From an uncultured Pseudomonadales bacterium (GTDB lineage Bacteria > Pseudomonadota > Gammaproteobacteria > Pseudomonadales > JANQJO01), in assembly GCA_964510525.1 (NCBI GenBank), contig CAZECE010000042.1, forward strand, positions 9,272 to 73,271: a DNA stretch of 64,000 bases. The letters are read 5' to 3'. Shown here piece by piece: positions 41,664 to 63,118 of the stretch. Both the position numbers and the translations under genes were made by a program. The notes beneath the pieces were generated by a model, which saw only the letters and a program-made list of their open reading frames with translations, did no database searches and was not told where the DNA came from. The first letter of the stretch is position 1. Every line of letters begins with the position of its first letter.

Positions 41664-42536
41664 TCAGTCTTTTAAGAGCTGTATGACTTCAGAGATTTCG
41701 TTTTTTGCTTCTTTAATCACTTCTAAGCTGGTCTCAGGAGTGAGCTTCAATTTTTTAAACGCAGGCACTTGGTGCCAAGCAAGTGAGGCCAGTGGGTGAT
41801 CGGTGTTGCGAACCACATGGAGTTTAGCAACCAAGACGATGTCTGCGTAATCAATGAGTCCCTCGTGCTCTCTCTCTGTTTTTTGAATCTGTAAAGGTAC
41901 AGCAGAAACGCCCGGGTTTAAATTCCAATTTTGCAAAATCCATTGGCTGAGTTGAGGGCTCAGTTGGCGGATTGCATCGTCTAAAACTTCGGGGTTTTTC
42001 GGCTTGCCAAATTTTTTGGCGCAGAGCTGAATAATGGGGATGGCCCCGATGTCTTGCACCAAACCCACCATCAAGGCTTCTGAGCTGTCCAGGTGCCTGT
42101 GTGGTCGGCTTAACACCTCGCTGATGGCGCCAATTTTAATGCTTTCGTTCCAAACTTTCCGCATTCGGTTGCGCACCCAGCTTTTGTCCGCGCCACCAAA
42201 CATAGCCGACATGGTCAGGCTGAACACCAGGTTCTGAATGCACGTCATGCCCAGTCGGGTAACAGCATGATCGATGTCTTTGATGACATTTAAACCACGA
42301 AACAGTGGGCTATTAGCTGCTTGAATTAAGCGGCCGGTGAGAACAGGGTCGGTACTGAGAAACTTGGCAATTTTTTGGGTGTTGGTGTCCGGATCTTCGA
42401 TGAGTTTTTTGATTTTTTGGGTGTTCTCAGGTAACGAAGGCAAAGTGAAGTTCTTGGCCATCACTGATTTCCGGATCTCTTCGATCAAAGGATTCGATGA
42501 AGGGCCGCTGTCTTGAGTGCTTGCAGTTTGTGGCAT
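41664..42536 (-). CDS. HDOD domain protein
   Basis: LPSLPE....I..L..DP......IA.....DP.LT.R.....NS.LF, plus downstream HD-like helices typical of HDOD. Confidence 0.8.
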   Translation of the reverse strand: MPQTASTQDSGPSSNPLIEEIRKSVMAKNFTLPSLPENTQKIKKLIEDPDTNTQKIAKFLSTDPVLTGRLIQAANSPLFRGLNVIKDIDHAVTRLGMTCIQNLVFSLTMSAMFGGADKSWVRNRMRKVWNESIKIGAISEVLSRPHRHLDSSEALMVGLVQDIGAIPIIQLCAKKFGKPKNPEVLDDAIRQLSPQLSQWILQNWNLNPGVSAVPLQIQKTEREHEGLIDYADIVLVAKLHVVRNTDHPLASLAWHQVPAFKKLKLTPETSLEVIKEAKNEISEVIQLLKD

Positions 42537-43885: not shown

Positions 43886-45250
43886 TTAAATGATTTGCTC
43901 TAGATCGAAGTGATCGTCTTGCAACGATGGCGGGATTTTTTCCTGACTGAGTTGCGCTAAGATGTCCATGCTTTCATTCAAAGAGTTGTCTCCAAGGTGC
44001 TTGGATTCGTCATTGATTAAAGTCAGTTGGCGGTATAACTTTTTCATCTGCCATAGCAACTCAGTGTACATAAGGCCTATTTCTTCTATCTCACTGAACA
44101 TTTCGGATGAGGCGGTTTCCAGGCCGTGTTGAATCCAGCGTTTGATCCCGAGATTAAACAGCCCTGAGCTTTTGACAATGTATAAAATATGCAGATATAT
44201 CTTTTGGGCGCATTGGCGAGGTTTTTCGGCGGTGTTCGTTGGGATGCAGGCCATGATGTCATTGATGGAGCGTGCCCAGGCGGTTAGCAAATCATATTCG
44301 GATAAAAGGCGTTGACAATAATCAGGCATTTCTTCGTCGCTTTTTCGTCGCTTGACAGTCAGTTCGGCTTTGTTGATTAATGAGGCTATTGCCGTGTAGT
44401 TTTTGTACATGTACATGCGTTGATTAATTTGAAGAAAGGGTTGTAGGCATTTTAAGTTGGTTGATTCTTTGCTTCCTTTAAACCTTAATGGGTGGAGCGT
44501 GTCGCAGATCGCAATGATCTGGCCAGCGGGTATCAGTCTTTCTTCAATTCTGCCAGCAGGGTACCCAGTGCCATCACAGCTTTCGTGATGTTCTAATATG
44601 GCACGAGGAATGATTTTATGGATCCCGGATATCGATTTCGTAATGGCATGCCCAATGACCGTGTGGTTTTGCATGGTGCGCCATTCTTTTGAGTCGTATT
44701 GGCCTGTTTTGTTAACGATTTCTGGTGGGATATGAAGTAAGCCAATATCATGGCACAGAGCAGCTATAAAAATGGCGCTGGCTTCAGAGGGCGGAAGTTG
44801 GAGTTTTTGAGAGATGCCTATCGATAGCCAGGCGCAAAAGCAGCCTTTTTCAAAGGCCTTTGGAATTTGACTGGCTAGAACCGTGAGCATTTGTTGTAAT
44901 GTTTTGTGTTTTGCATACAGGTTGCACATGGCTTTTAGAGGGCGATCGATTTGGTTTTGTGTGTGTATGGCCATTAAGTCATCATGGTTTTTTATCCATT
45001 CAGATATGTGGTTATAAAGCTTTTCGCCATTGTATCCATCTTTGATGTGTACACTGTCTTGCAGTGGTTTCATTAAGCGGTGTTTGATAAGCTTTTCGGT
45101 GACACCGGGGGCTAAGCTTTCGCCACTTTTTACCAACAAAGCGCCTTTTTGGTTGTAGATATTCTCTGAGGTCACCACGTTCTTGGTTTTATTTAAATCC
45201 GACAGGTGTTTGGCATAGGAGTCGGGTTTAAGTGGGTCAAACTCGTTCAT
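43886..45250 (-). CDS. HD-GYP domain phosphodiesterase-like protein
   Basis: HDIGLLHIP and HHESCDGTGYP motifs. Start set at ATG 45250 (MNEFDPLK...). Confidence 0.85.
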   Translation of the reverse strand: MNEFDPLKPDSYAKHLSDLNKTKNVVTSENIYNQKGALLVKSGESLAPGVTEKLIKHRLMKPLQDSVHIKDGYNGEKLYNHISEWIKNHDDLMAIHTQNQIDRPLKAMCNLYAKHKTLQQMLTVLASQIPKAFEKGCFCAWLSIGISQKLQLPPSEASAIFIAALCHDIGLLHIPPEIVNKTGQYDSKEWRTMQNHTVIGHAITKSISGIHKIIPRAILEHHESCDGTGYPAGRIEERLIPAGQIIAICDTLHPLRFKGSKESTNLKCLQPFLQINQRMYMYKNYTAIASLINKAELTVKRRKSDEEMPDYCQRLLSEYDLLTAWARSINDIMACIPTNTAEKPRQCAQKIYLHILYIVKSSGLFNLGIKRWIQHGLETASSEMFSEIEEIGLMYTELLWQMKKLYRQLTLINDESKHLGDNSLNESMDILAQLSQEKIPPSLQDDHFDLEQII

Positions 45251-45314
45251 GGGTCGCCTAATTAATGGTAACGATGTACTCAGTATATGCCTTGTTGAGG
45301 TTGAATGATGAAGT

Positions 45315-46712
45315 TTGGAGGGCGTCCGTATTAAGATCATTTTGTTGTTTATGAGTTTACTGTGTTGGTCAGTGAGTGTGTCTGCTGCTTCGGTATCTGA
45401 AGAATCCTTGGGTCATGAGTGGGCTGATCGCCATCAATTGGTTGTGATTACGGCAGAGCAGGCGTCGGCTCACTTATCGATATCGGATGTTACATTAATG
45501 GCTGTTCGCTCAGGTCGTTTAGAGTCGATCCCTTTTCAAATCGATGAAGTTGACCAAGAAGGGTTCGTTTACTTCTCAGAGACGGGTATTCCTCATTCCG
45601 GCTTACAGGATGTCTGGGATGGGTTGGATGAGTTGGTGTTTATGTTAAAGGACGCGAGTCCTGAGAGGCTGGTTAGAAGGGGTCATAATGAGAATGTTTC
45701 TTCAGGCGCACCAGGTGCTGTGGACACACCTGTTATAGACGCTGATATAGGTAAGGTTTTGGCTGAAGTGTCGACTGAATTCAATAATGGTGTAAAGGGT
45801 TACGTTTACTTGGTTCAGGGGGAGCCAAGTCAAGGAGGGGGTGATTATGTGCGATATGACCGAGAGGCTTATGTTGCTGAAAGCGATTGGTATCGACTGA
45901 CTTCACGAGCGGATAACCCGATTGAGTTGCAGGATTTGAGTTATCGTGACGATAGATTACCAGAAGCATCTTTATTGGACACGGTTAAAATGTGGATTAC
46001 TGGACACAGCGTTGGTGGTGTGACCCAGATGACGATTACCAATCGTAATTTTCGAGCCGAGGTGGTTGACGTTAAGGCGGGAGCTATTCGAGCGAATGTG
46101 CAGTTAAAAGCCCAGCTCTCAGTCGCCAAAATTCCGATTATGAACTTTTGGATAAAGTATCAGTTTACCCCTTCAGGTTTGAGAGCCGTATCTCGGGCGG
46201 AAATTCCTAATTGGATGCCGATGTTTTTGTATCGCACGTCCGTTGGTTTATCGATGGATGCGAATGATTTGAGAGGGAGCCAAGTGTATGCTTATTCCGA
46301 CTCGGATCAATTATTGGTTGGGGAGGTCGATGGCGAATTGTCGCAAGCTGAGGTTCGCATGCAAAGCGCGGCGCTGTCTTCTGAAAACCCTTGGTGGATG
46401 CTGGTCAGCCCAAGAAACTTTCAAGTGTTGGCGCGGATGAAGATCCCAACGCAATACGAAACGCCGATCAATTTGATTTATCAGGACGATGTTTTATTAA
46501 AAGTATCTCCGGAGCGTTATGTTGGGCAATTGCCAAATATTGGCTTTCAAGTGTCGAGAATTCCACTTAAAGGTGTTTATACCATGGTGTTTGATCTTTA
46601 CTTTGATAATGTTGACTCACGCTTGAATCCACGGGCGTACGTTGAATCAAAATTAACACCGACTCAATATGATTGGCGCTGGTTAACTGAACACAGACAG
46701 CTTTCAGACTGA
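45315..46712 (+). CDS. hypothetical secreted protein (465 aa)
   Basis: Signal peptide (IILLFMSLLCWSVSVSAAS). No recognised family. It diverges from the HD-GYP gene across a 64-bp spacer. The start (TTG 45315 or ATG 45351) is uncertain. Confidence 0.55.
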   Translation: MEGVRIKIILLFMSLLCWSVSVSAASVSEESLGHEWADRHQLVVITAEQASAHLSISDVTLMAVRSGRLESIPFQIDEVDQEGFVYFSETGIPHSGLQDVWDGLDELVFMLKDASPERLVRRGHNENVSSGAPGAVDTPVIDADIGKVLAEVSTEFNNGVKGYVYLVQGEPSQGGGDYVRYDREAYVAESDWYRLTSRADNPIELQDLSYRDDRLPEASLLDTVKMWITGHSVGGVTQMTITNRNFRAEVVDVKAGAIRANVQLKAQLSVAKIPIMNFWIKYQFTPSGLRAVSRAEIPNWMPMFLYRTSVGLSMDANDLRGSQVYAYSDSDQLLVGEVDGELSQAEVRMQSAALSSENPWWMLVSPRNFQVLARMKIPTQYETPINLIYQDDVLLKVSPERYVGQLPNIGFQVSRIPLKGVYTMVFDLYFDNVDSRLNPRAYVESKLTPTQYDWRWLTEHRQLSD

Positions 46713-47538: not shown

Positions 47539-48867
47539 TTATTCCTCTTCACTTTTCTTAGGTTGCAAGGGTTCCAGTGAGAGTTCAGATAAGCCTTTTG
47601 CGACGGGTTTTGGGGTGCTTGGTGTTTTTGGGGTGAGCTTGGCTTGCACGGCTTGTGCAGCCTGTACGGCCGTGTTTTTGATGGAAGGTACTGTTGATGC
47701 TTGAGGTGCTGACGCTTGAGATGGTGTTGATGTTTTAGGGGTTGCGTCAGGTTTTTGAGCCTCTTCATTGGTGGCTTTAGCGGCAGGTGCAGAATTGGCG
47801 GATGGATTTTCGTCTAGGTTGATGCGCAAGCGCAAATTGTTTTTTGAATCCGCATTTTTCAATGCTTCATCTAAGGAGATGCGACCTTGCTTGTAGAGTT
47901 TGTACAATGCGGTATCGAAGGTTTGCATGCCTTGTGCTTCGGATTTCAACATGACTTCTTTAATGGCATCGGGTTCGCCATTCTTAATCAAATCGCACAC
48001 TCTTGGGGTACCCAATAAAATCTCAATCGCCGCGGCTCTTTTGTTATCAATGGTCGGCATCAATCGTTGCGAAATGATGGCTTGCATATTTAAAGACAGG
48101 TCCAAAAATAACTGTTTATGGCGCTCTTCTGGGAAAAAATTCACGATGCGGTCGATCGCTTGGTTGGCGTTGTTGGCGTGTAAAGTTGAAATGCATAAGT
48201 GTCCAGTTTCAGCAAAAGCCAACGCGTGCTCCATGGTTTCAGCGGAGCGGATCTCGCCAATTAAAATAACATCAGGTGCTTGGCGTAGGGTGTTTTCAAG
48301 AGCATCTTCATAGCAATCTGTATCTACACCAACCTCGCGCTGATTGACAATGCACTTTTGATGCTTGTGAACAAATTCGATTGGGTCTTCGATGGTAATG
48401 ATGTGGCCCGCGCTGTTTTTATTTCGGTAATCAATCAACGATGCCAAAGAGGTTGATTTCCCTGAACCTGTGCCACCTACAAACAAAATTAAGCCACGTT
48501 TTTGCATGATTACCTGCAATAATATGTCGGGCAATTTGAGACTGTGAAAGTCTGGAATTTCTGTTTTTATCGCCCGGATAACCATGCTGACTTCGTTGCG
48601 TTGCTTGAAAATATTGACTCGAAATCGCCCGACACCACTGATGCTGATGGCTAGATTGAGTTCGGGTTTATTTTCAAATTGTTGCTTTTGCTCGTCATCT
48701 AAGAGAGCGTATGCCAGTTGGGCTGATTCGCCTTTCTGAAGGGGGGTGTCACTCAATGGCTCCATTTTGCCATAGATTTTGCAGTTGATTGGCGCACCGG
48801 TGCTGACAAAGAGATCGGATCCATCTCGGTCAATCATGATTTTCAGGTATTTTTCAAGTGAATCCAT
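47539..48867 (-). CDS. pilU: PilU-type (PilT family) type IV pilus ATPase with ~70-aa low-complexity C-terminal tail
   Basis: Walker A GGTGSGKST, Walker B DVILIGEIR, His box GHLCISTLHANNA. The C-terminal GMQTFD.AL..LY.....S..EALKNADS.N.LRLRI.L matches PilU rather than PilT, which has the AIRNLIRE motif. About 70 Pro/Ala/Ser/Thr/Lys-rich residues follow. Confidence 0.8.
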   Translation of the reverse strand: MDSLEKYLKIMIDRDGSDLFVSTGAPINCKIYGKMEPLSDTPLQKGESAQLAYALLDDEQKQQFENKPELNLAISISGVGRFRVNIFKQRNEVSMVIRAIKTEIPDFHSLKLPDILLQVIMQKRGLILFVGGTGSGKSTSLASLIDYRNKNSAGHIITIEDPIEFVHKHQKCIVNQREVGVDTDCYEDALENTLRQAPDVILIGEIRSAETMEHALAFAETGHLCISTLHANNANQAIDRIVNFFPEERHKQLFLDLSLNMQAIISQRLMPTIDNKRAAAIEILLGTPRVCDLIKNGEPDAIKEVMLKSEAQGMQTFDTALYKLYKQGRISLDEALKNADSKNNLRLRINLDENPSANSAPAAKATNEEAQKPDATPKTSTPSQASAPQASTVPSIKNTAVQAAQAVQAKLTPKTPSTPKPVAKGLSELSLEPLQPKKSEEE

Positions 48868-48934
48868 AGTGGCGGCCTGCTTGTAGCTTGGGTAATTTCT
48901 TGAGGGATGTTCCGAAAATAGTATAGACGGACTC

Positions 48935-49615
48935 TTAGCTTGAAAGGGTATAAATAACGCCGCTGCACTTTATTCGGTGACTTGGCGTTGCGTACCGATT
49001 TTGTTGGTCGCTAATGCATTGATTAAAGCCTTCCTCAGACCAGTTTTTTCCTGGCGCGGCTATTTGAACCTTGCCTGATAAGGGTTTTCCATCATCATAC
49101 TGTTTGTCAAACAGACTGAAGATACGCAATGGAATGCCGTTACCGGTTAGGATGGCGTTGGTTTCGATATCATCTTGTAAAGAAAAACGCCCGTAACTGA
49201 TGTTGATTCCATGTCCGTAGCCATTATTCAGGCATCGTTTAATGTTGCAGGCGAATTCGTTTTTTTCTACTTCTTTGCCATCGGTATAGGCATCCAGTAG
49301 GCCGCTAAAGTTTAAGTGTTGCCAGAGTTGTCCGCGTTCTTTTTCGGTATTTATTTTGTGGTCCCCATTGCCATTGGTGAGCAAGGAATCAATGTGTGTT
49401 TGCGCATATGCAAAATCACCAGGCATGGCTTTATATTGGTTTTTGAAAGCGTACCAGGCATGCGTGGTGTCTGAAATGAGTTCTGAAAAACGCTGTAGCT
49501 GGGCTTGGGTAATCAGTTGGTAGCCGTAAATGAGGCTGCTGATTAGCATGCCGAATAAACTTAATATAAGGGTGATTTCAGTCGGTGTAATATGGAGTTT
49601 GTGTGCTGCGTTCAT
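48935..49615 (-). CDS. pilin-like protein with non-canonical leader (MNAAHKLH / ITPTEITLILSLFGMLISSLIYGY)
   Basis: I prefer ATG 49615, which forms an ATGA overlap with the upstream stop. A short basic leader is followed by a hydrophobic helix with Thr+2 and Glu+5, but His replaces Gly at -1. The body has NGNGD...W.HL..SGLL and Cys residues, as in many minor pilins. Confidence 0.45.
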   Translation of the reverse strand: MNAAHKLHITPTEITLILSLFGMLISSLIYGYQLITQAQLQRFSELISDTTHAWYAFKNQYKAMPGDFAYAQTHIDSLLTNGNGDHKINTEKERGQLWQHLNFSGLLDAYTDGKEVEKNEFACNIKRCLNNGYGHGINISYGRFSLQDDIETNAILTGNGIPLRIFSLFDKQYDDGKPLSGKVQIAAPGKNWSEEGFNQCISDQQNRYATPSHRIKCSGVIYTLSS

Positions 49616-50196
49616 GGTAACCTGAGTTCTTGGCTTGTTAGCCAAACCAGCTGATCATTAAACACAATGGGGCCTAGGTTAGAAAACTCCTGAAAATTTT
49701 GATTGGCGTTCGCGCCTTCTAAATACAGCGAGAGCATTTTTTTCGCACCATTGGGTTGTGGGGTATTGGCTGATGGGCGTTTTTCTTGACCATTTAATTC
49801 CTGGTGTGGTGCGATGATGACAGCTTTGGCGTTGCCTTGCCCATTGACTGTCAGGGTGTGATTAGGGCTGTAGGCGTACCACAATCGTTCGTTGTGATTG
49901 TCCCTGAGGTCTTTTAAACCAAGCGTTTTAAAGGGCAGCCATCCTATGGTAGATAAGCATTTTTCTTTGAGCGTATCGCTTATGCCATCGTTGTTATCAT
50001 CTGGGCAAGGTAGGTTGTCCGCTTGAGATAGTAAGGCGTTTTTGGCTAGAGTGAGGGCGTTTATACCGTGAAATTTCTTTTGTTTTGGGTGTTGAATAGC
50101 TTGGTATGTTAGATACCCAATGCTGACGCTGCCGATTGTGAACATAACCACGGACAGGTATAAGATATTGAGGGTTTCTTTTGATGGGCTGACCAT
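49612..50196 (-). CDS. membrane-anchored pilin-like/pseudopilin-like protein
   Basis: N-terminal TM helix (ILYLSVVMFTIGSVSIGYL). Motif LPCPDDNNDG......C...GWLPFKTLGL.DLRD...ERLWYAYS resembles motifs I recall from minor-pilin-like proteins. No G/F-T-L-I-E cleavage site. Confidence 0.4.
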   Translation of the reverse strand: MVSPSKETLNILYLSVVMFTIGSVSIGYLTYQAIQHPKQKKFHGINALTLAKNALLSQADNLPCPDDNNDGISDTLKEKCLSTIGWLPFKTLGLKDLRDNHNERLWYAYSPNHTLTVNGQGNAKAVIIAPHQELNGQEKRPSANTPQPNGAKKMLSLYLEGANANQNFQEFSNLGPIVFNDQLVWLTSQELRLP

Positions 50197-50201
50197 TTAT
50201 T

Positions 50202-51359
50202 TTAAAACCTATGACGAAGCTGATCTAAGCGCAATTGCAACACTTCATGAGTAAAACTAGCGGGCTGTTTCTGAGAAAACTGTAAGGCTTTTTTGTAGTG
50301 CAAGTATGCTGGTTTGTATTGTTTTAGGTGTTCAAAGCTGACGCCGATATTAAATAAAATATCTGGGTTATTTGGATTGATCTTTAAAGCTTCTAAAAAA
50401 CTTGCATTGGCGGCAGTCCAGTTGGATTGTTTGGCAAATAAATTACCTTGAGTAAAGAGTAGTAGACTGTGATTTGGGTGAAATGGAATAAGATCTTGAA
50501 TCAGTGTGCTCATCTTTTGAGGATGGACTTGGTTCGCTAATCGAATCAGTGTGTCAATCCCCGTTAAGTCTTTTGGGTATTGTTTTAGGTGTTCTGACAG
50601 TGATTCAAATGCCAATTGATAATAACCTTGAACAATTAACAGGTTGGTGTTCTCAAAGGCATTGTTTGTTGCCGTTTTGGCTTTTTTGGTCGAAATTTTT
50701 GTAAGGCTGAACGGCTTTTTAATCGGTTGTTCAATTGGCTTATCCACTCGTTCAATTACTACTTGGTTTTCTGTGCGGGTTAATGTGTTGTTGGTTGGTG
50801 GTGTTTCCTCGATCGCTTTTGTTTTGGTGAGTGTTTCGTTTTTGGGCTGAGTATTAGGTTGTTTATTAGGTTGTGCTGAGGGTTGCGTTTTAGACTGTAC
50901 TTTGGGTTGTATGTTGTTAAAAGTTTCTTGAGAGAACGCGACTTGTTGGTTTTTAACGCTCGATTGATGTTCAGCTATCTTAGATTCAGTCTTGTTTGTA
51001 GACAGTGAAGGGTCGATAGCAGCATTTTTTGCCAACAAACTAAAAATTAAAATGCACAAACTTAAGATTAGGCCAGAGGTCCAAGCTGCAGACGGGGTTT
51101 TATGACTAACGTGTTGCGTTTGCGTTAAAAATTTTGCCAGTTGACTGCTGTTCTGCAAAGGCGATGGTGATTGTGGGCTGTTGCTGGGGCTTTTTCTTAG
51201 GTTGTGATTGTCGTTATGATTGTGGTTATTTTCTTGTGCTTGCGCGGGCTGTATTTTCTGCCGTATCTTGAGTTTAGGGATCGGAGTGACATGCGCTTTT
51301 TTCAGCGAGTCGGCCTTTTTAGTGGCGGCTTTTTCTAATGCGTTTAACAGGGCACTCAT
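50202..51359 (-). CDS. MshN-like protein: N-terminal cytoplasmic segment, one TM, low-complexity linker, C-terminal TPR repeats
   Basis: Architecture and position immediately after the MshM-like ATPase. N-terminus MSALLNALEKAA resembles MshN (MSVIN.AL..LA). TPR-like C-terminus (A...F.EAL.INPNNPD.LFN.GV..E.L..Y..A...Y..AL). Confidence 0.55.
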   Translation of the reverse strand: MSALLNALEKAATKKADSLKKAHVTPIPKLKIRQKIQPAQAQENNHNHNDNHNLRKSPSNSPQSPSPLQNSSQLAKFLTQTQHVSHKTPSAAWTSGLILSLCILIFSLLAKNAAIDPSLSTNKTESKIAEHQSSVKNQQVAFSQETFNNIQPKVQSKTQPSAQPNKQPNTQPKNETLTKTKAIEETPPTNNTLTRTENQVVIERVDKPIEQPIKKPFSLTKISTKKAKTATNNAFENTNLLIVQGYYQLAFESLSEHLKQYPKDLTGIDTLIRLANQVHPQKMSTLIQDLIPFHPNHSLLLFTQGNLFAKQSNWTAANASFLEALKINPNNPDILFNIGVSFEHLKQYKPAYLHYKKALQFSQKQPASFTHEVLQLRLDQLRHRF

Positions 51360-51377
51360 ACGGCTTTCCTTGGTAAC

Positions 51378-52271
51378 TTAAGCTAACGAGTTGAAGAGTA
51401 GGACCCCGAGACTGAGGTACATGATGCCGATCATGACCCATGGCAAAGCCACCCAGTGAGTCTTTTGCGCTTTTGTGTCTCGTGCGGCTTGGCGAATATC
51501 GTCAGAGTTGATGCTTAATCGGTTATTGGCATAGGCAATGAGCATCGCTTTATCGGCTAATAGGTTGATCTTTCTGGCTAGTCCTTTGGAGTATTTTTGG
51601 ATGGCTTTAGTTGCTGCCTGGTTAAACAGTCCTGGGCCTCGGTAGCCAGATGCTTGCAGTCTGTGATTTAGGTAATGGTTAATGTCTGATTTGGTAAAGG
51701 GTTTTAGATAAAACTGATGATGGATACGGTCTTGCAGCTGCCTGATCTTTGGGGTGCTGAGGTGTTGGTCTAATTCAGGTTGGCCAAATAAGACGATTTG
51801 CAGCAGCTTTGCTTGACCTGTTTCAAGGTTGCTGAGCAAGCGTATTTCTTCCAGTGTTTCTATTGGTACACACTGAGCCTCTTCAATTAATAAAATGACC
51901 TGACGATTTTGAGCATGCTTGACGAGCAGTTGGTGCATCAGGGCTTGCATTAATTTGGCTTTTGGCCAGTGCTCTTGTGCTGGGATATTCATTTCTAAGG
52001 CGATCGTCACCAGCATTTCAATTGGGGGTAAAGAGGGGTTGATGATGTAAATGACATCGGTTGTTCTCGGTAAGCTGTTTGCCAGCATATGACAGAGCAT
52101 GGTTTTGCCTGTGCCAATTTCACCGACGACTTTCACAATGCCAATGCCTTCCTCGAGTGTGAATTTTAGAGCCTCTAAGGCGGCACCTCGTTCGCTACCT
52201 GAAAAAAATAAGGCGGTATCTGGCGTGAGGCGAAAGGGTTGTCTGGCCAAACCAAAGTGTTCCAAGTACAT
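51378..52271 (-). CDS. ExeA/GspA/MshM-like AAA+ ATPase
   Basis: MYLEHFGL...PF...PD..F.F....R..AL..L, Walker A GEIGTGKTMLC, Walker B VILLIEEAQ. C-terminal TM helix and no peptidoglycan-binding domain, as in MshM. Confidence 0.8.
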   Translation of the reverse strand: MYLEHFGLARQPFRLTPDTALFFSGSERGAALEALKFTLEEGIGIVKVVGEIGTGKTMLCHMLANSLPRTTDVIYIINPSLPPIEMLVTIALEMNIPAQEHWPKAKLMQALMHQLLVKHAQNRQVILLIEEAQCVPIETLEEIRLLSNLETGQAKLLQIVLFGQPELDQHLSTPKIRQLQDRIHHQFYLKPFTKSDINHYLNHRLQASGYRGPGLFNQAATKAIQKYSKGLARKINLLADKAMLIAYANNRLSINSDDIRQAARDTKAQKTHWVALPWVMIGIMYLSLGVLLFNSLA

Positions 52272-52433
52272 GACGGCTTCCGTGCGTGAATCAATTAAGG
52301 GTTAGGGAGCCTTATGTGCTGTCAGTCTGATATCCTTATCAGGTATCGCATGCAATACGGCTCCTTTAACAGTATAGACAAGATCTTTTTGAGAGCCTTT
52401 ATGCAGGCATGTTGTTGGCTGTTTCTGTGCTTA

Positions 52434-55004
52434 TTAGCGCATAAGCTGTATTTTTTTGTGTTTGCGTGGCGTTGCAGAAACTGATTGGGCGCGGGAGGAA
52501 GGGCGGAAAGGTAATGATTTATTAGGAATGGCCTGTATGCATTGCATCATCAGTGTGCCTAATTGAGCAAAGCTGGCGGGTTTGTCATATAAAGTGACTG
52601 GCCAACTCAAAGCATCATCTGGAATGTGAGGTTCCTGGATGTGCTCTGGAACAAGAATAACGATGGGGGTATTTTGATAGCACTGAATTTTTTTGATGTC
52701 CTCCAGCAAGTTGGTGACCAAGGATGTGGGCTCTGTGTAATCTAACAAGATTAAATCAAAAGTTGAGCGGGTGTTTTCAGTATGCTCAAGGTTCTGTAAC
52801 GCTTGTCGGCTTGACAGTGCCAGGCTTAAAGGAATATCTAAACTATTCGCTTGTTCAGACATTATGGTTCCGTAGTCTCCTTGGTAGGTCATCAGTAGGG
52901 TCAGTTTATTTCTTAGAACGCTGAAAATGGCTCTATGATCGGTTTCTTCCGATGAATCTTTGCTGACAGGTAACATCAGCTGGTAATGTGTGCCAGCAGG
53001 GATGCTGCTTGAGACGGTAAGCTGCCCTCCCAGTCTTAACAAAATGTCGCGCAGTTTAAAGATCTCTGGGTGATGCGTTTGGTGGTGGTTACTGTTTTTT
53101 GAAGATTCTGCTTGAGTGTTAATAAAATATTGGTTGAGCGTGGTGTTAAAGTCGGCGTTGGAGGGCAGAGTGTCTTCTAAGGAGCAAATCAATTGGATGT
53201 TGTTCTCCATGAACTCGTCGGTTTCGAGTCGCATTTTTAACACGTTATCGATACCGGCCGATCGTTTTAAGCTGTGTTTGGCGAGCTCAATTAATAAAAC
53301 TTCAATGGCTCGGTTTGGGCCTTTTAATTGTGTGACGGTCGTGGGCTTGATTGAGTAAAGCATCTGGGTTTTAGCGTCTTTGGCTTCAATTGATATTTTT
53401 TTAAGGATGTCATGGCCTAGCGTGCGTAAGTTAAATGGGGCTTTTTCATAGAGAGCGGTTTGTTTTTTGTTAGGGGTGTTTGTGTCATTTTGGGTATTAG
53501 GGCCTGAAATAGCGGCAAGGTAATCGACGTTAGCGGTGGAGTTTCTAGAATCAACGCCTGTGTGCGTAAAGAGTGGTGGATTGGATGGGGTGTTTGTTGA
53601 TTTATTCGATTTCTCAATCGACTCCAATTGACCTAGGTGGCTAGCACTTTGGTGTTGCTGATGAAGCTGTTTAAAAAAAATCAATTGCCACAGGCCTAAT
53701 GTCACTACGCTGAGAGCGTGTATTGCTTGAAACAAGGAGGCTTGTTGAATAAAACTAGGCCCCCCTCGCCAATACAGTAAAAATTGAAATAAAGACAGCA
53801 GGCTAAAAATAATAACACTCAAATACTGATCTATTGGGTTTAACAGCGCCAACTTATTTTTGGCTAGATGCTGCTTTGGACCGGTGTTTTGTCTGCGCTT
53901 TTTAAAATAGTCGAAATTAATATGGATGACCCAGAAAAGCAAAAAGCAGGGAATACCTGCCAGCAGAAGGCTAAGACCTGGTTTTTGATGCATGAGGCTT
54001 ATGACAAAAGCTGAGACTATTAGGGTTTGCAGGGCCCACTTGCTGCGACTGGATTGTATAATGTCATTGTTAACTTGTTGGTGGAGGTGTCGATAACTCG
54101 TCACGTACAGTAAGACTAAACTCAGGGCGATCCAAATATCTGTGCTTATGCGTTCTGTTAAGTGTTGCGGTGTGTCGGACATTGGGGTTGCCAAAGTAAC
54201 CATTAATAAGCAATAGCCTGAAAACGCGATGCGTTGCTGAACTAAGGTATTGTGTTTCACGCTAGGCAGTAATTTCCGCATCGACCAGAACAGCAGTAAG
54301 CAGCCTATTGCGGTGATACTCATCCAAACCCATAGCCAAGACAAGCTGGGTTGTGCTGTATTTAAAGCGGTTTGCTCGGTGATATAGAAATGAATGGGGT
54401 GGTGGCTCTCAAGCCTTAAATAAAATAGGGCTTCAGATTTAGGGGCTAATTCTGCTGTAAAAGGTTGTGCTAAAAAGGTGGTGGTATTTTTAAGAGGTAT
54501 GAGTTGGCTGTGTTGGGAGGTTTTATTCAGTTGGAAGAGTTGAGTGGATGAAGGTTGCCAATAATTAAAATGCTGTGAAAATTCGACTGTCTTTGAAGTG
54601 GGGTTTTTGAAGGTTAGCTTCAGCCATATGGGGTAACTGGCCCAACCGAAAGAGAGTTTTGGGGTGTCTGTCGATAGGAATTGCACTTCTTTGAGTTGTT
54701 GTAATAGGGTTTCTGGGGCCGCGTCTGGCTCGGTTTGTTGCATCACATCCAGCCAATAATGGATCGTATAAGCAGGGGTTAACTTTAAATCGGCGGCATG
54801 AGTTGAAGCATCGCTGTTGCTCGTATTGTGTAGCGTGCTGTCTACAGCGGCATGTGCCTGTTGGCTGTGATTATTCTGAATCAAGATGACTTGAATCAAT
54901 GCAATGATCAGGCTGATCCGAAAGGCTTGTAAGACACTAGGCCAAGCAGTTGCAGGTAGATGGCTTGGCCGTGGTGGTTTTTGTAAAGCAATCCAAAACG
55001 TCAT
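52434..55004 (-). CDS. 7TMR-DISM family receptor with degenerate histidine-kinase core and degenerate receiver domain
   Basis: Periplasmic DISMED2-like region (LSFGWASYPIWLKLTFKNPT), then seven predicted TM helices. The H-box position reads YLAAISGPNTQ, with Gly where the phospho-His should be. The HATPase fold lacks N/G1/G2 boxes. The C-terminal REC-like fold has LILLDY and DKP but no acidic pair. Start set to ATG 55004 to avoid overlap with mnmC. Confidence 0.7.
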   Translation of the reverse strand: MTFWIALQKPPRPSHLPATAWPSVLQAFRISLIIALIQVILIQNNHSQQAHAAVDSTLHNTSNSDASTHAADLKLTPAYTIHYWLDVMQQTEPDAAPETLLQQLKEVQFLSTDTPKLSFGWASYPIWLKLTFKNPTSKTVEFSQHFNYWQPSSTQLFQLNKTSQHSQLIPLKNTTTFLAQPFTAELAPKSEALFYLRLESHHPIHFYITEQTALNTAQPSLSWLWVWMSITAIGCLLLFWSMRKLLPSVKHNTLVQQRIAFSGYCLLMVTLATPMSDTPQHLTERISTDIWIALSLVLLYVTSYRHLHQQVNNDIIQSSRSKWALQTLIVSAFVISLMHQKPGLSLLLAGIPCFLLFWVIHINFDYFKKRRQNTGPKQHLAKNKLALLNPIDQYLSVIIFSLLSLFQFLLYWRGGPSFIQQASLFQAIHALSVVTLGLWQLIFFKQLHQQHQSASHLGQLESIEKSNKSTNTPSNPPLFTHTGVDSRNSTANVDYLAAISGPNTQNDTNTPNKKQTALYEKAPFNLRTLGHDILKKISIEAKDAKTQMLYSIKPTTVTQLKGPNRAIEVLLIELAKHSLKRSAGIDNVLKMRLETDEFMENNIQLICSLEDTLPSNADFNTTLNQYFINTQAESSKNSNHHQTHHPEIFKLRDILLRLGGQLTVSSSIPAGTHYQLMLPVSKDSSEETDHRAIFSVLRNKLTLLMTYQGDYGTIMSEQANSLDIPLSLALSSRQALQNLEHTENTRSTFDLILLDYTEPTSLVTNLLEDIKKIQCYQNTPIVILVPEHIQEPHIPDDALSWPVTLYDKPASFAQLGTLMMQCIQAIPNKSLPFRPSSRAQSVSATPRKHKKIQLMR

Positions 55005-55023
55005 GAGGCTCAAGTGTTCGCTT

Positions 55024-56937
55024 TTAAAGGGGGGGCGTTTTGAGTTGGAACCGCTCCGGGTGTATCGCTTGTTGCAGTGTTTTTGAGATAGCAAAAGGCG
55101 CTCCTGCTAAATAGCTTAACAGAATATCGGCACAGATCCAGGCGTGGGTGAACCCTCGAGAGCCTAATCCACAATTGATTAGGACTTTGCTGTTGAATCC
55201 AAGTTGCTCAATAGGGCCGACTAACGGCAAATAATCACGCGACTGTGTTCGAATCGCAGTGCGCCCTTGAAGCGAATCGGTCGCTATGTTGCGGTACGCT
55301 TGGGCTATCTTTGGGCTTAAGAGAGGCAGATAGTTGATGTTTTCTTGATGCTCTTTGGGTTTCAGGCTGTCATCTGCGTTATTTGGATAATAGGTGGCCC
55401 CCAAAATCTGTACGCTGTCGCTGGAGGCCATTTTTGGTAACAAATAGTTTTTACCACTGAGAATGGTTGTTAGGGCCTCGCTTTCAGGTGTGCAGGGCAG
55501 TTCGGTTAGCTGGCCTCGTATTGGCAGTAAATTGAGCGCCAGCTGAGGGAGAAGCTGTTGCGTGTGAAAGGCTGTACACAAAATGATGTGATCATAGTCA
55601 TTAAGCGCCTGCTCTATTGTGTGTGTTGAAAATAATGTGTTAAGTCTCACGTCGATATTGGGGTGTTGGCATAAGGCTTGGCACAGTTCTGCTGCGGGTA
55701 TGAGGTGGGCTTTGGGGTAATACATCCCTGTGTTTTCGATGGTTGTATTGGCAATGTCGCTGGCTTGTTCTGGGGATACGACTTGCTCCCAAGCCTCCGG
55801 CCAAAGTTTGTGTTGTCGGATTTTGTTGAATCGCTTTTCTTCTCGAGGGTTACCAGGAAATTGAATCATGCCAGTGTTGGGCAGATGAACACTGGATGGC
55901 GTAAGGGCTTCAAGATTGGAGGCAGAAAAATAACTGCTATTGTGCTGAAACTCATTGAAGCAGCCTTTGAAAATGGATAAAGGTGTTTGCAGCGCTGCTC
56001 TGGCATTGCCAGAAGCTTTGGCCGCAATCTGGGTTTCTGAATCGGTGAGTGCCACGTGATAACCGGCGCTTGCTAAACGGTGTGCTGTGCTACAGCCGCT
56101 GATGCCAGCGCCAACAACGAGGGTTTTTTTGTGGCGGGATTGGGACAGTTTCGGTGATTTAGAAAAGGTGCTGTTTTGAGTGGGCGGGGTAATATAACCT
56201 GCCAGCATTTCTCTTTTGTGTTGAAAGCCTGGACGTTTTGAGACGCTGAACCCTGCCGCTTGTAACCCTCGACGAACCTGGCCTGCGGCTGTAAATGTCG
56301 CAAAATTTGCGTTCGGTGCTGCAATGCGTGCCATCTGTGAGAATAACGCGTCGCTCCACATTGCCGGGTTTTTTTGTGGAGAAAAGCCGTCGAGAAAAAA
56401 TGTATCGATATAACCGGAAAATTGGCTGAGGGCTTCTAGTGCATCCTGCCAGAGTAAGGTAAGGCTGATGTTGTACTCTGGCCATACCAGTCGATAACGA
56501 CCTGGAATAAGGGGAGGATAATGTCGTACTAGTCTGTTACCAATCATCTTTGATGGCGTGTTACTGAGGGAAGGGTTGAGCAGCAGTTGGTTGAGCTGGG
56601 TTTTAAAATGCGCTTGCGTCAGGGGGTGTTTTTCAATCGTGATGTAATGCAGCTGTGGCTGTGTTGTTTGGCTGGTTGCCTGTTGGTGTTTAAAAAAGGT
56701 GTTGCAGGCCAATAAAAAATTTAAACCGGTACCAAAGCCAGTTTCTAAAATGCGTAAACGCCCTTGTGTTTCTCCAAGGCGTCTTTCTAAGTGTGTATTA
56801 TGAATAAAGACGTACAGGCTTTCTTCAATAGGGTGGTTGGGGTTGAAGTAGACGTCTTGATATTCCAGGCTTTTAGGGAATTGAGCGTTTGGATCCAGTT
56901 TGGCAGGAATTAAGGGGGTAATGCAGCTGTCTATCAT
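55024..56937 (-). CDS. mnmC: bifunctional tRNA (mnm5s2U34) methyltransferase / FAD-dependent cmnm5s2U34 oxidoreductase MnmC
   Basis: N-terminal MTase half (ILETGFGTGLNFL, FFLDGFSP.KNP.MW) and C-terminal DAO-type FAD half (VVGAGISGCSTA..LA..G). Confidence 0.9.
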   Translation of the reverse strand: MIDSCITPLIPAKLDPNAQFPKSLEYQDVYFNPNHPIEESLYVFIHNTHLERRLGETQGRLRILETGFGTGLNFLLACNTFFKHQQATSQTTQPQLHYITIEKHPLTQAHFKTQLNQLLLNPSLSNTPSKMIGNRLVRHYPPLIPGRYRLVWPEYNISLTLLWQDALEALSQFSGYIDTFFLDGFSPQKNPAMWSDALFSQMARIAAPNANFATFTAAGQVRRGLQAAGFSVSKRPGFQHKREMLAGYITPPTQNSTFSKSPKLSQSRHKKTLVVGAGISGCSTAHRLASAGYHVALTDSETQIAAKASGNARAALQTPLSIFKGCFNEFQHNSSYFSASNLEALTPSSVHLPNTGMIQFPGNPREEKRFNKIRQHKLWPEAWEQVVSPEQASDIANTTIENTGMYYPKAHLIPAAELCQALCQHPNIDVRLNTLFSTHTIEQALNDYDHIILCTAFHTQQLLPQLALNLLPIRGQLTELPCTPESEALTTILSGKNYLLPKMASSDSVQILGATYYPNNADDSLKPKEHQENINYLPLLSPKIAQAYRNIATDSLQGRTAIRTQSRDYLPLVGPIEQLGFNSKVLINCGLGSRGFTHAWICADILLSYLAGAPFAISKTLQQAIHPERFQLKTPPL

Positions 56938-62555: not shown

Positions 62556-62810
62556 TTGAGTCGAATAGTGCTCGATGTTTCAGGTGAAGATCACCAAAAG
62601 ATAAAAGCTCTTGCGGCGTTACAGGGGAAATCTATTAAAGATTATGTTTTGGGGAAGGTTTTTTCTGATCGTGCTGATGAAGAAGAGGCTATGGTAACAC
62701 TCCAATCTTTATTGTCCGAGCGTATTGCAAGGGCGGAATTGAAAGGAAGTACCGGAAAATCATTCAGCCAAATTGCAGATGACGCCATTCGAAATAGGTT
62801 CGATCGTTAG
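62556..62810 (+). CDS. type II antitoxin, ribbon-helix-helix (ParD/CopG-like)
   Basis: TTG start 9 nt after GAGG. N-terminal RHH pattern (RIVLDVSGEDHQKIKALAALQGKSIKDYVL). Its stop overlaps the toxin start by 1 nt (TAGTG). Confidence 0.7.
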   Translation: MSRIVLDVSGEDHQKIKALAALQGKSIKDYVLGKVFSDRADEEEAMVTLQSLLSERIARAELKGSTGKSFSQIADDAIRNRFDR

Positions 62811-63118
62811 TGTCGAATTTTGAAGTCAGCTTCGATGCTGAGCAAGATTTGCTGGATATCATTTCTTACACTATCGAAAATCATGGTGTGCCAAAAATGG
62901 AGTTGTATATTGCCAAACTGGAAAAGTGCGCTGATCAGCTTGCTATGAAACAGGGCCACTTCCGTGTGATTGATGTTGATTACAAATCAGTTCGCGTAAA
63001 GCATTGCCAGCATCATTATATTTTTGGTTTTGATCGTGACTCTTCTGTCTTTGAGGTGATTGCTATCTTCCACGAGCGTATGGATTTAATAAGGCGATTG
63101 GAGATTAGGCTTTCTTAA
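62810..63118 (+). CDS. type II toxin, RelE/ParE family (ParE-like)
   Basis: 102 aa. F...A..DL..I..YT........A..Y...L......L...............R......HYIF.......V.VI.I.HERMDL is the ParE pattern. Confidence 0.75.
   Translation: MSNFEVSFDAEQDLLDIISYTIENHGVPKMELYIAKLEKCADQLAMKQGHFRVIDVDYKSVRVKHCQHHYIFGFDRDSSVFEVIAIFHERMDLIRRLEIRLS

Follow-up and report, generated by a model that had tools for sequence, protein, structure and literature searches.

Six genes downstream of mnmC

The sequence analysed here is a stretch of 64,000 nucleotides (nt) from an uncultured Pseudomonadales bacterium (GenBank assembly GCA_964510525.1, contig CAZECE010000042.1, positions 9,272 to 73,271), which will be called the window. 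The subject of this work is a block of six genes at 47539-55004, next to the tRNA-modification gene mnmC. All six open reading frames (ORFs) are intact and lie on the minus strand and, read 5' to 3', they encode a 7TMR-DISM sensor, an MshM-like ATPase (M), an MshN-like protein (N), two small pilin-like proteins (small2 and small1) and a PilU-like ATPase. The PilU and sensor genes are joined to the block, and the secretin, extension ATPase, platform and alignment genes of an MSH-type system are missing here. The features are the following (aa, amino acids):

47539-48867, minus strand: PilU-like ATPase, 442 aa (ORF list and TIGR01420)
47566-47583, minus strand: LSLEPL motif in the PilU tail, aa 429-434; pattern [ML]SL[SA]LEP[IL] in five of five orthologous tails
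48935-49615, minus strand: small1, from an ATG, with an alternative TTG start at 49645 (ORF list)
49612-50196, minus strand: small2 (ORF list)
50202-51359, minus strand: MshN-like TPR protein, 385 aa (TPR Pfam matches)
51378-52271, minus strand: MshM/ExeA-like AAA+ ATPase, 297 aa (AAA_22)
52434-55004, minus strand: 7TMR-DISMED2 sensor, 856 aa from an ATG, with an alternative TTG start at 55094

From the coordinates, M and N are separated by 18 nt and N and small2 by 5 nt, and small2 and small1 overlap by the 4 nt of an ATGA. The preliminary description of this DNA had proposed six co-oriented minus-strand genes with these same gaps and overlap, in agreement with the ORF coordinates, and the identities that it assigned (an MshM/ExeA-like ATPase, an MshN-like TPR protein, a PilU-type ATPase and a pseudokinase 7TMR-DISM receptor) are borne out by the domain matches given below. 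It had also regarded the segment as more AT-rich than its flanks; this AT-richness is marginal, the GC content being 0.439 in the block and 0.460 in the window, with 15 of 114 equal-sized segments equally low or lower, and a foreign origin is unsupported. The GC trough, of 0.39-0.40, is a low-complexity linker rich in Q, N, P, K and T within the TPR gene. The module is set among housekeeping genes (aspS, tol-pal, aceEF and mnmC), with no island.

The preliminary description had proposed looking for the six genes together in relatives, with a set not conserved as a unit as the outcome that would speak against it, and the order mnmC-sensor-M-N-small2-small1-PilU was in fact found in four more metagenomic lineages (L094, L095/L096, L097/L098 and L099). 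The orthologous genes encode an M of 301 aa, a small2 of about 200 aa, a small1 of about 215 aa and a T2SSE ATPase of 417-440 aa. The genes upstream of the block are similar across lineages, and those downstream differ (PDH; AIM24/ThiF; TatD/MinCDE). Identity to the window copy is 75-80% for PilU, 58-60% for M, 37-41% for small1, 29-36% for small2, 32-35% for the C-terminal TPR region of N and about 30% for the C-terminal part of the sensor.

Purifying selection maintains the arrangement in several lineages. All block ORFs are intact at 29-80% amino-acid identity, and the ratio of non-synonymous to synonymous substitution rates (dN/dS) is 0.07-0.21 for five genes, MshN giving no estimate; these values are those of the L094/L095 pair and their synonymous sites are saturated, as they are between the window and its relatives. 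The four genes M-N-small2-small1 occur alone in a fifth lineage, on the P0002/P0276 contig (ERR4592245), where unrelated genes lie downstream of them. This is the closest relative by MshM (69% identity to P0276), and it has no PilU and no recognisable sensor beside the four genes; in another lineage (L086/L087) only small1-PilU is found, preceded by 620 nt of non-coding DNA. Thus, the constant core is M-N-small2-small1, with PilU and the sensor as usual, not universal, companions.

Relation to MSH-type loci

A scan for the ATPase among species-representative genomes returned hundreds of relatives with 46-58% identity. In complete loci the ATPase gene comes first and is followed by genes for a secretin, a TPR protein, an MshEN+T2SSE ATPase, a T2SSF platform protein, three unannotated proteins of about 525, 205 and 60-200 residues, which are taken as MshI/J/K-like, and a protein of about 500 aa. 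The TPR protein of these loci starts with MSxLLxALKKA and carries its TPRs at the C-terminus, as its counterpart in the window does. Since several of the ATPases carry the Joint Genome Institute (JGI) name 'MSHA biogenesis protein MshM', these complete loci are MSH-type loci in a variant gene order. Those examined are L008, L015 (Halioxenophilus), L085 and L102, plus about 60 with M, N and the ATPase in fixed spacing, and the variant is found in Gamma- and Betaproteobacteria. In every complete locus seen, the secretin gene lies between M and N, and MshE and MshG directly follow N.

The preliminary description had considered the gene content unlike that of any known locus. This does not hold, as homologues of M, N, small2 and small1 are all encoded in complete loci of the type M-secretin-N-MshE-MshG-I/J/K-like-pilins, and, because of this homology, the block is best read as a reduced derivative of an MSH-type locus. 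The small proteins correspond to families at the pilin end of these loci. Compared with MSH/MSHA systems (PMC6668835), the block shares an M with 46-58% identity and an N with 25-40% identity, whereas it lacks the MshL secretin, MshE, MshG and the MshI/J/K-like genes, its small2 has about 40% of the family length and no class III signal, and its attached PilU and 7TMR-DISM sensor were not seen in the complete loci examined.

MshM gives 82.6 bits with AAA_22 and 201 bits with TIGR03015, the latter below its cutoff. It has a hydrophobic segment at 274-292 and is predicted to be a cytoplasmic protein with one C-terminal membrane helix. MshN matches TPR_11, TPR_2 and TPR_1 within residues 300-365, and its C-terminal 120-140 aa carry the identity to the post-secretin TPR gene of complete loci; the N-terminal motif MSxLLxALxKA is common to the complete-locus TPR proteins and the block orthologues. 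With a transmembrane segment at 97-115, it has a bitopic layout consisting of this segment, a low-complexity periplasmic linker and C-terminal TPRs. The linker (window 50500-51100) is the long Q/N/P/K/T-rich stretch that gives the local GC minimum, and its length varies greatly among orthologues, which have 385 to 549 aa in total. A membrane-anchored AAA+ ATPase with a bitopic periplasmic partner is also found in ExeA/ExeB (GspA/GspB) and in TadD-type secretin-assembly helpers, and MshN has been reported as a TadD homologue (PMC6668835). The block differs from these in that its M has no peptidoglycan-binding or SPOR domain, one or other of which is carried by many complete-locus M proteins, and in that no secretin gene is nearby.

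The preliminary description was also right in that the 64 kb hold no machinery core. In tblastn searches of the window with complete-locus queries (among them MshE, MshG and the secretin of L008), no match to a secretin, MshE, MshG or MshI/J/K was obtained except with the ATPase core of PilU; no second T2SSE gene is present in the 64 kb, and a six-frame scan of them found no further prepilin motif of the form G[FMILV]T[LMIV]xE. The flanks available in the same metagenome assembly, about 7.7 kb past the left edge and 10 kb past the right edge, have no pilus genes.

The detection model for MSH treats it as a multi-locus system with loner genes (PMC6668835). Among the genes that are mandatory in this model (Denise et al. 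2019), mshE, mshG and mshL are absent from the 64 kb and the flanks; mshM is present, on the AAA_22 score and the identity to complete-locus M proteins given above; and for the mshA-type pilin there is small1, a pilin-family protein without Gly-1 here and with Gly-1 in its sister orthologues. Because only mshM is clearly there, the block is not classifiable as an MSH system on present evidence, although it plainly descends from one.

Pilin-like proteins, motor and sensor

An exhaustive HMMER search returned 2545 relatives of small1 at E<=1e-3. Most of them, the canonical members, begin QQGFTLIEIAIVLVIIG and score above the N_methyl threshold, with 25.7-32.9 bits in the 224-aa member of L085, P0134 and P0130. 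The AlphaFold2 (AF2) model of small1, which has a predicted local distance difference test (pLDDT) score of 94.9, consists of a helix (11-61) and a beta domain after it, and its best Foldseek match is the CFA/III type IVb pilin (E 2.7e-4), followed by TcpA, PilS and PilA1. The family profile, searched against PDB sequences, matches Neisseria PilE (8.7e-7) and MshA (9e-4). There is little or no variation at C200 and C217. Glu+5 is at least 90% conserved in alignment A3 and, except for P0127 with its Asp, invariant in A2. On the strength of homology and of a modelled helix-plus-beta fold with its cysteine pair, small1 belongs to the type IV pilin family.

A glycine at position -1 is the key requirement for cleavage by prepilin peptidase. 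In the window, small1 reads KLH/ITPTE (the slash stands between positions -1 and +1), so that Gly-1 is lost and Glu+5 kept, and the same is true of the nearest relative of the window (FHN/ITLTE). The sister proteins of four lineages have kept both residues, namely QAG/HAYTE in L094, QRG/HAWTE in L095, VSG/SAWVE in L097 and PRG/HAWTE in L099, the window being the fifth lineage, without Gly-1. The missing glycine is therefore a trait of the lineage of the window and not of the whole module, and, since Gly-1 is lost in one and kept in the others, small1 probably undergoes processing in the sister lineages and stays anchored in the membrane in that of the window.

The second small protein, small2, aligns over its full length with the N-terminal 40% of a family of about 500 aa, the 'LPCPD...LPWKTLG' family (alignment A1), with which it has in common the motifs AK.ALL.YA, LPCPD, G.LPWKTLG and LWYA. 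A search with the family profile gave 337 relatives, mostly of 480-530 aa and with no Pfam domain. The complete-locus member of this family, encoded after the MshI/J/K-like genes, starts with QxG and a hydrophobic helix, and a 247-aa paralogue in L085 gives 29.5 bits with N_methyl and matches small2 by BLASTP (1e-5). Searched on its own against the word-indexed collection, small2 retrieves itself and one relative only, and the family profile has no match among PDB sequences. The AF2 model has a pLDDT of 79.6, with a helix at 6-56 and then a beta-sheet. The protein reads SKET/LNIL in the window, with neither Gly-1 nor Glu+5. On these features, small2 is a truncated, uncleavable member of a pilin-like family of about 500 aa.

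The preliminary description had called both small proteins pilin-like and non-canonical, lacking a Gly-1/Phe+1 site. Their pilin-like nature is confirmed by homology for both and by the pilin-fold model for small1 (pLDDT 95), and neither has the Gly-1/Phe+1 site in the window; the term non-canonical fits the two window proteins and fails for small1 of the sister lineages, which keeps Gly-1/Glu+5. The comparison with pilin folds that it had suggested was significant for small1, whereas the two best Foldseek matches of small2 are pilins without reaching significance. In the profile searches, TIGR01420, AAA_22, TPR and 7TMR-DISMED2 gave matches, and neither small protein matched N_methyl or any other entry of Pfam/NCBIfam.

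It was also considered that small1 could be the lost C-terminal half of the ~500-aa family of small2, as the product of a split gene; this was rejected, as phmmer and BLASTP comparisons with 125 members gave nothing better than E 0.01. A metagenome scan with the small1 alignment recovered four distant, short loci only. In complete systems, canonical small1-family genes lie a few kb downstream, inside a cassette of ABC permease, 249-aa protein, pilin and ABC ATPase. Thus, in L085 (12271-17717) and L088 (6609-11448) a GFTLIE pilin of the small1 family is encoded between an ABC-2 permease gene with the unannotated 249-aa gene and an ABC ATPase gene, which is an unusual place for a pilin gene, within an ABC transporter operon. 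A divergent HATPase_c protein of about 550 aa is encoded beside this cassette.

The PilU of the block scores 445.4 bits with the PilT/PilU family TIGR01420 (cutoff 319.1) over residues 4-343 of 442, and its Walker A (GGTGSGKST), Walker B (DVILIGE) and His boxes are intact in the translation, which places it in the PilT/PilU family. In L086, the gene that follows the small1 homologue encodes a protein 66% identical to it. Like the PilT/PilU proteins of type IVa pili (V. cholerae, P. aeruginosa, A. baylyi), it has the full core with unaltered Walker and His boxes, followed by a C-terminal region of the PilU type, with RVCDLIKNGE in place of what we take to be the corresponding PilT motif, AIRNLIRE. 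It differs from them in that its gene is not beside pilT and directly follows a pilin-family gene, and in an extra C-terminal tail of about 75-95 low-complexity residues (window 47542-47826). In the five orthologous tails, the Pro/Ala/Ser/Lys-rich surroundings are not conserved and the LSLEP motif is. Such a pattern is characteristic of short docking motifs within disordered tails, and this motif may be one of them. A second tail motif, PGN[LM].[DN][DE]FF[KR]K, is present in PilU of the four sister lineages and absent from the window.

PilU is known as a PilT-dependent motor (PMC6762196, PMC6821130), and a C-terminal extension of PilU wraps the PilT hexamer (bioRxiv 10.1101/2025.10.30.685630). 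In V. cholerae, MSHA pili are reported to be retracted by PilT/PilU encoded away from the msh locus (PMC7096442, PMC9815625).

In the sensor, 7TMR-DISMED2 is matched with 33.9 bits (cutoff 22) at residues 114-238 of the 886-aa form, and the domain is also called in all four orthologues. These have 759-835 aa, stand at the same position in L094, L095, L097 and L099, and are about 30% identical to the window protein over the C-terminal part. No HisKA or HATPase_c match was obtained with Pfam and no H-box was detected in the sensor; there is a weak BarA match at residues 549-816, and the C-terminal 340 aa match the catalytic domain of a histidine kinase (PDB 7z8n, E 3.9e-4). This alignment has other residues in place of the N-box Asn and of the glycines of G1 and G2, and the orthologues are degenerate in the same way, so that the protein has the sensory domain of a 7TMR-DISM kinase and neither HisKA nor a competent HATPase_c. 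Its C-terminus, as read from the sequence, is a receiver-like segment with the aspartate of DLILLD kept. The periplasmic 7TMR-DISMED2, the multi-pass membrane region, the kinase-like domain and the receiver-like C-terminus are shared with RetS/LadS-type sensors, from which it differs in having no detected HisKA/H-box and in the replaced ATP-binding boxes; it may be a signalling partner of the block. A relation to the HATPase_c protein beside complete loci was rejected, with no similarity at E 1e-2.

In the window, 19 nt separate the sensor start from the mnmC stop (55004-55024). In all relatives the sensor start lies only a few bases from the mnmC stop codon or the sensor gene overlaps this codon (L094 7599-7601; L095 7540; L097 7542-7554; L099 4369), and the mshM start is 50-180 nt further on. 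Taking into account this abutment or overlap, the sensor may be co-transcribed with mnmC rather than with mshM.

Possible role of the block, and its surroundings

The reading that we tentatively favour, with a probability of roughly 0.45, is that an MSH-type locus gave rise to the block, which is now a conserved accessory module and uses machinery encoded elsewhere, including PilT and prepilin peptidase. That it is a working accessory module and not junk is probable, because it is found again in several uncultured gammaproteobacteria.

In such a module, the cytoplasmic, tail-anchored MshM (an AAA+ protein) and MshN, with its periplasmic TPRs, would form an inner-membrane pair like ExeA/ExeB or the TadD-type helpers and could serve a secretin encoded elsewhere. 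The pilin subunit would be small1, cleavable in the sister lineages at the Gly-1/Glu+5 site and in the window probably remaining uncleaved in the inner membrane, and small2 would derive from a tip or minor-pilin-like protein and stay anchored in the membrane. FlaF and FlaG of the archaellum offer an analogy for small2, and in the window lineage for small1 too, as uncleaved filament-subunit-like proteins that act as static parts: they too have a filament-subunit fold, keep the membrane anchor and are not polymerised, and they have no sequence relationship to small1 or small2. PilU would give retraction force via a PilT encoded elsewhere, with its LSLEP-bearing tail tethering it to a partner within the module. 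The kinase-dead sensor, with its receiver-like end, might couple an envelope or carbohydrate signal to this activity in the manner of RetS/LadS.

Several observations weigh against this reading. No core machinery was seen, so that the dependence on a PilT, PilD or secretin encoded elsewhere is inferred. The absence of PilU and of a recognisable sensor from the closest relative by MshM raises the possibility that the six genes do not function as one unit, and promoter and terminator scans of the block gave shuffle-level scores only, with no operon signals. Gly-1 is lacking in small1 of the window lineage and in small2 throughout the reduced clade, which speaks against their being built into a filament in the ordinary way. 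Finally, the roles of MshM and MshN are poorly defined experimentally.

If the block is a working module, it shows how, in evolution, a complete type IV filament locus can lose all but its helpers, pilin derivatives and a motor and afterwards be connected to a sensor. It would be a natural case in which to address the role of MshM/MshN-type proteins with no secretin gene attached and the reason why cells keep a separate PilU, for which the tail motif and the fixed neighbours offer concrete candidate partners. The loss of Gly-1 in one lineage and its retention in the sisters would likewise be a natural experiment in turning a pilin into a membrane-resident protein. In the literature on MshM with MshN and on PilU and MSHA retraction, this arrangement was not found described, in queries that were not aimed at the arrangement and covered that literature in part.

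The explanation that competes best, and that we nevertheless consider unlikely, is a plain split MSH locus, with the secretin, MshE, MshG and MshI/J/K encoded elsewhere and with PilU and the sensor as mere neighbours. The multi-locus detection model with its loner genes (PMC6668835) and the common scattering of type IV pilus genes are in keeping with it, as are the 46-58% identity of M and N to those of complete loci and the Gly-1/Glu+5 site of sister small1, which implies processing and assembly by some machine. However, complete loci keep the secretin between M and N and MshE/MshG after N, so that two precise excisions would be needed, maintained in at least six lineages. The same explanation has to accommodate a small2 of under half the family length, whose class III signal is lost in all members of the reduced clade, and the ~82 kb of contiguous sequence, the 64 kb and the flanks together, without a core gene.

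An independent inner-membrane device for envelope or signalling functions, with no filament as its product, would be composed of uncleaved pilin-like proteins, used as static parts in the way of FlaF/FlaG, together with MshM/MshN, a tail-tethered PilU hexamer and a pseudokinase sensor; it appears rather improbable. In its favour, both pilin-like proteins lack Gly-1 in the window lineage, the conserved motif of the PilU tail suggests a dedicated partner, the sensor is catalytically degenerate in all orthologues, and the block is compact and conserved in the absence of any core gene. However, the small1 signal is cleavable in four of five block lineages, every experimentally studied PilU requires PilT and a pilus platform (PMC6762196, PMC6821130), the interaction of the parts is a prediction, and the four-gene core occurs with neither PilU nor sensor. 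A more specific form, in which pilin-fold fixed parts, an MshM/MshN scaffold, an LSLEP-docked PilU hexamer and a sensor input make up a self-contained inner-membrane device independent of PilT and of a secretin, is improbable as well; if true, parts of type IV filaments would have been put to a new use, in sensing or in envelope work.

The two remaining explanations fare worse. A decaying, functionless remnant of a lost MSH locus might be expected from the missing core genes, the truncated small2, the lost signal-peptide motifs and the degenerate kinase domain, but it is very improbable in view of six ORFs intact in five lineages at saturated synonymous sites, the low dN/dS of the five genes in L094/L095, the preserved overlapping and closely spaced starts, and a small1 that is modelled with high pLDDT and keeps the invariant residues of its family. 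A recently acquired AT-rich island, with nothing to recommend it but the slightly lower GC of the block, is effectively refuted by the position beside mnmC kept in distant relatives, and no mobility genes or tRNA are found at the borders; 15 of the 114 equal-sized segments are as low in GC, and the trough is the low-complexity linker.

Some observations on the surroundings can be added. Just outside the block, the minus strand encodes an HD-GYP-type (HD_5) protein (43886-45340) and an HDOD-domain protein (41664-42536), and in L097 a REC-GGDEF gene lies just upstream of mnmC; these neighbours may place cyclic-di-GMP signalling near the module, by a positional link only. On the plus strand, two genes past PilU, a 465-aa ORF with no family match is found at 45315-46712. 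The closest relative by MshM has an unannotated gene directly upstream of mshM that is equal in length to this ORF, at exactly 465 aa. In L094, DsrE/F/H and DsrC genes (255-1549) lie about 8 kb from the block, which hints that its carriers are sulfur-oxidising gammaproteobacteria. Further along the window, a ParD/ParE toxin-antitoxin pair is encoded on the plus strand at 62556-63118, between aceF and a YciK-like reductase gene, and a PIN-domain gene, annotated from L100, starts at the right edge.

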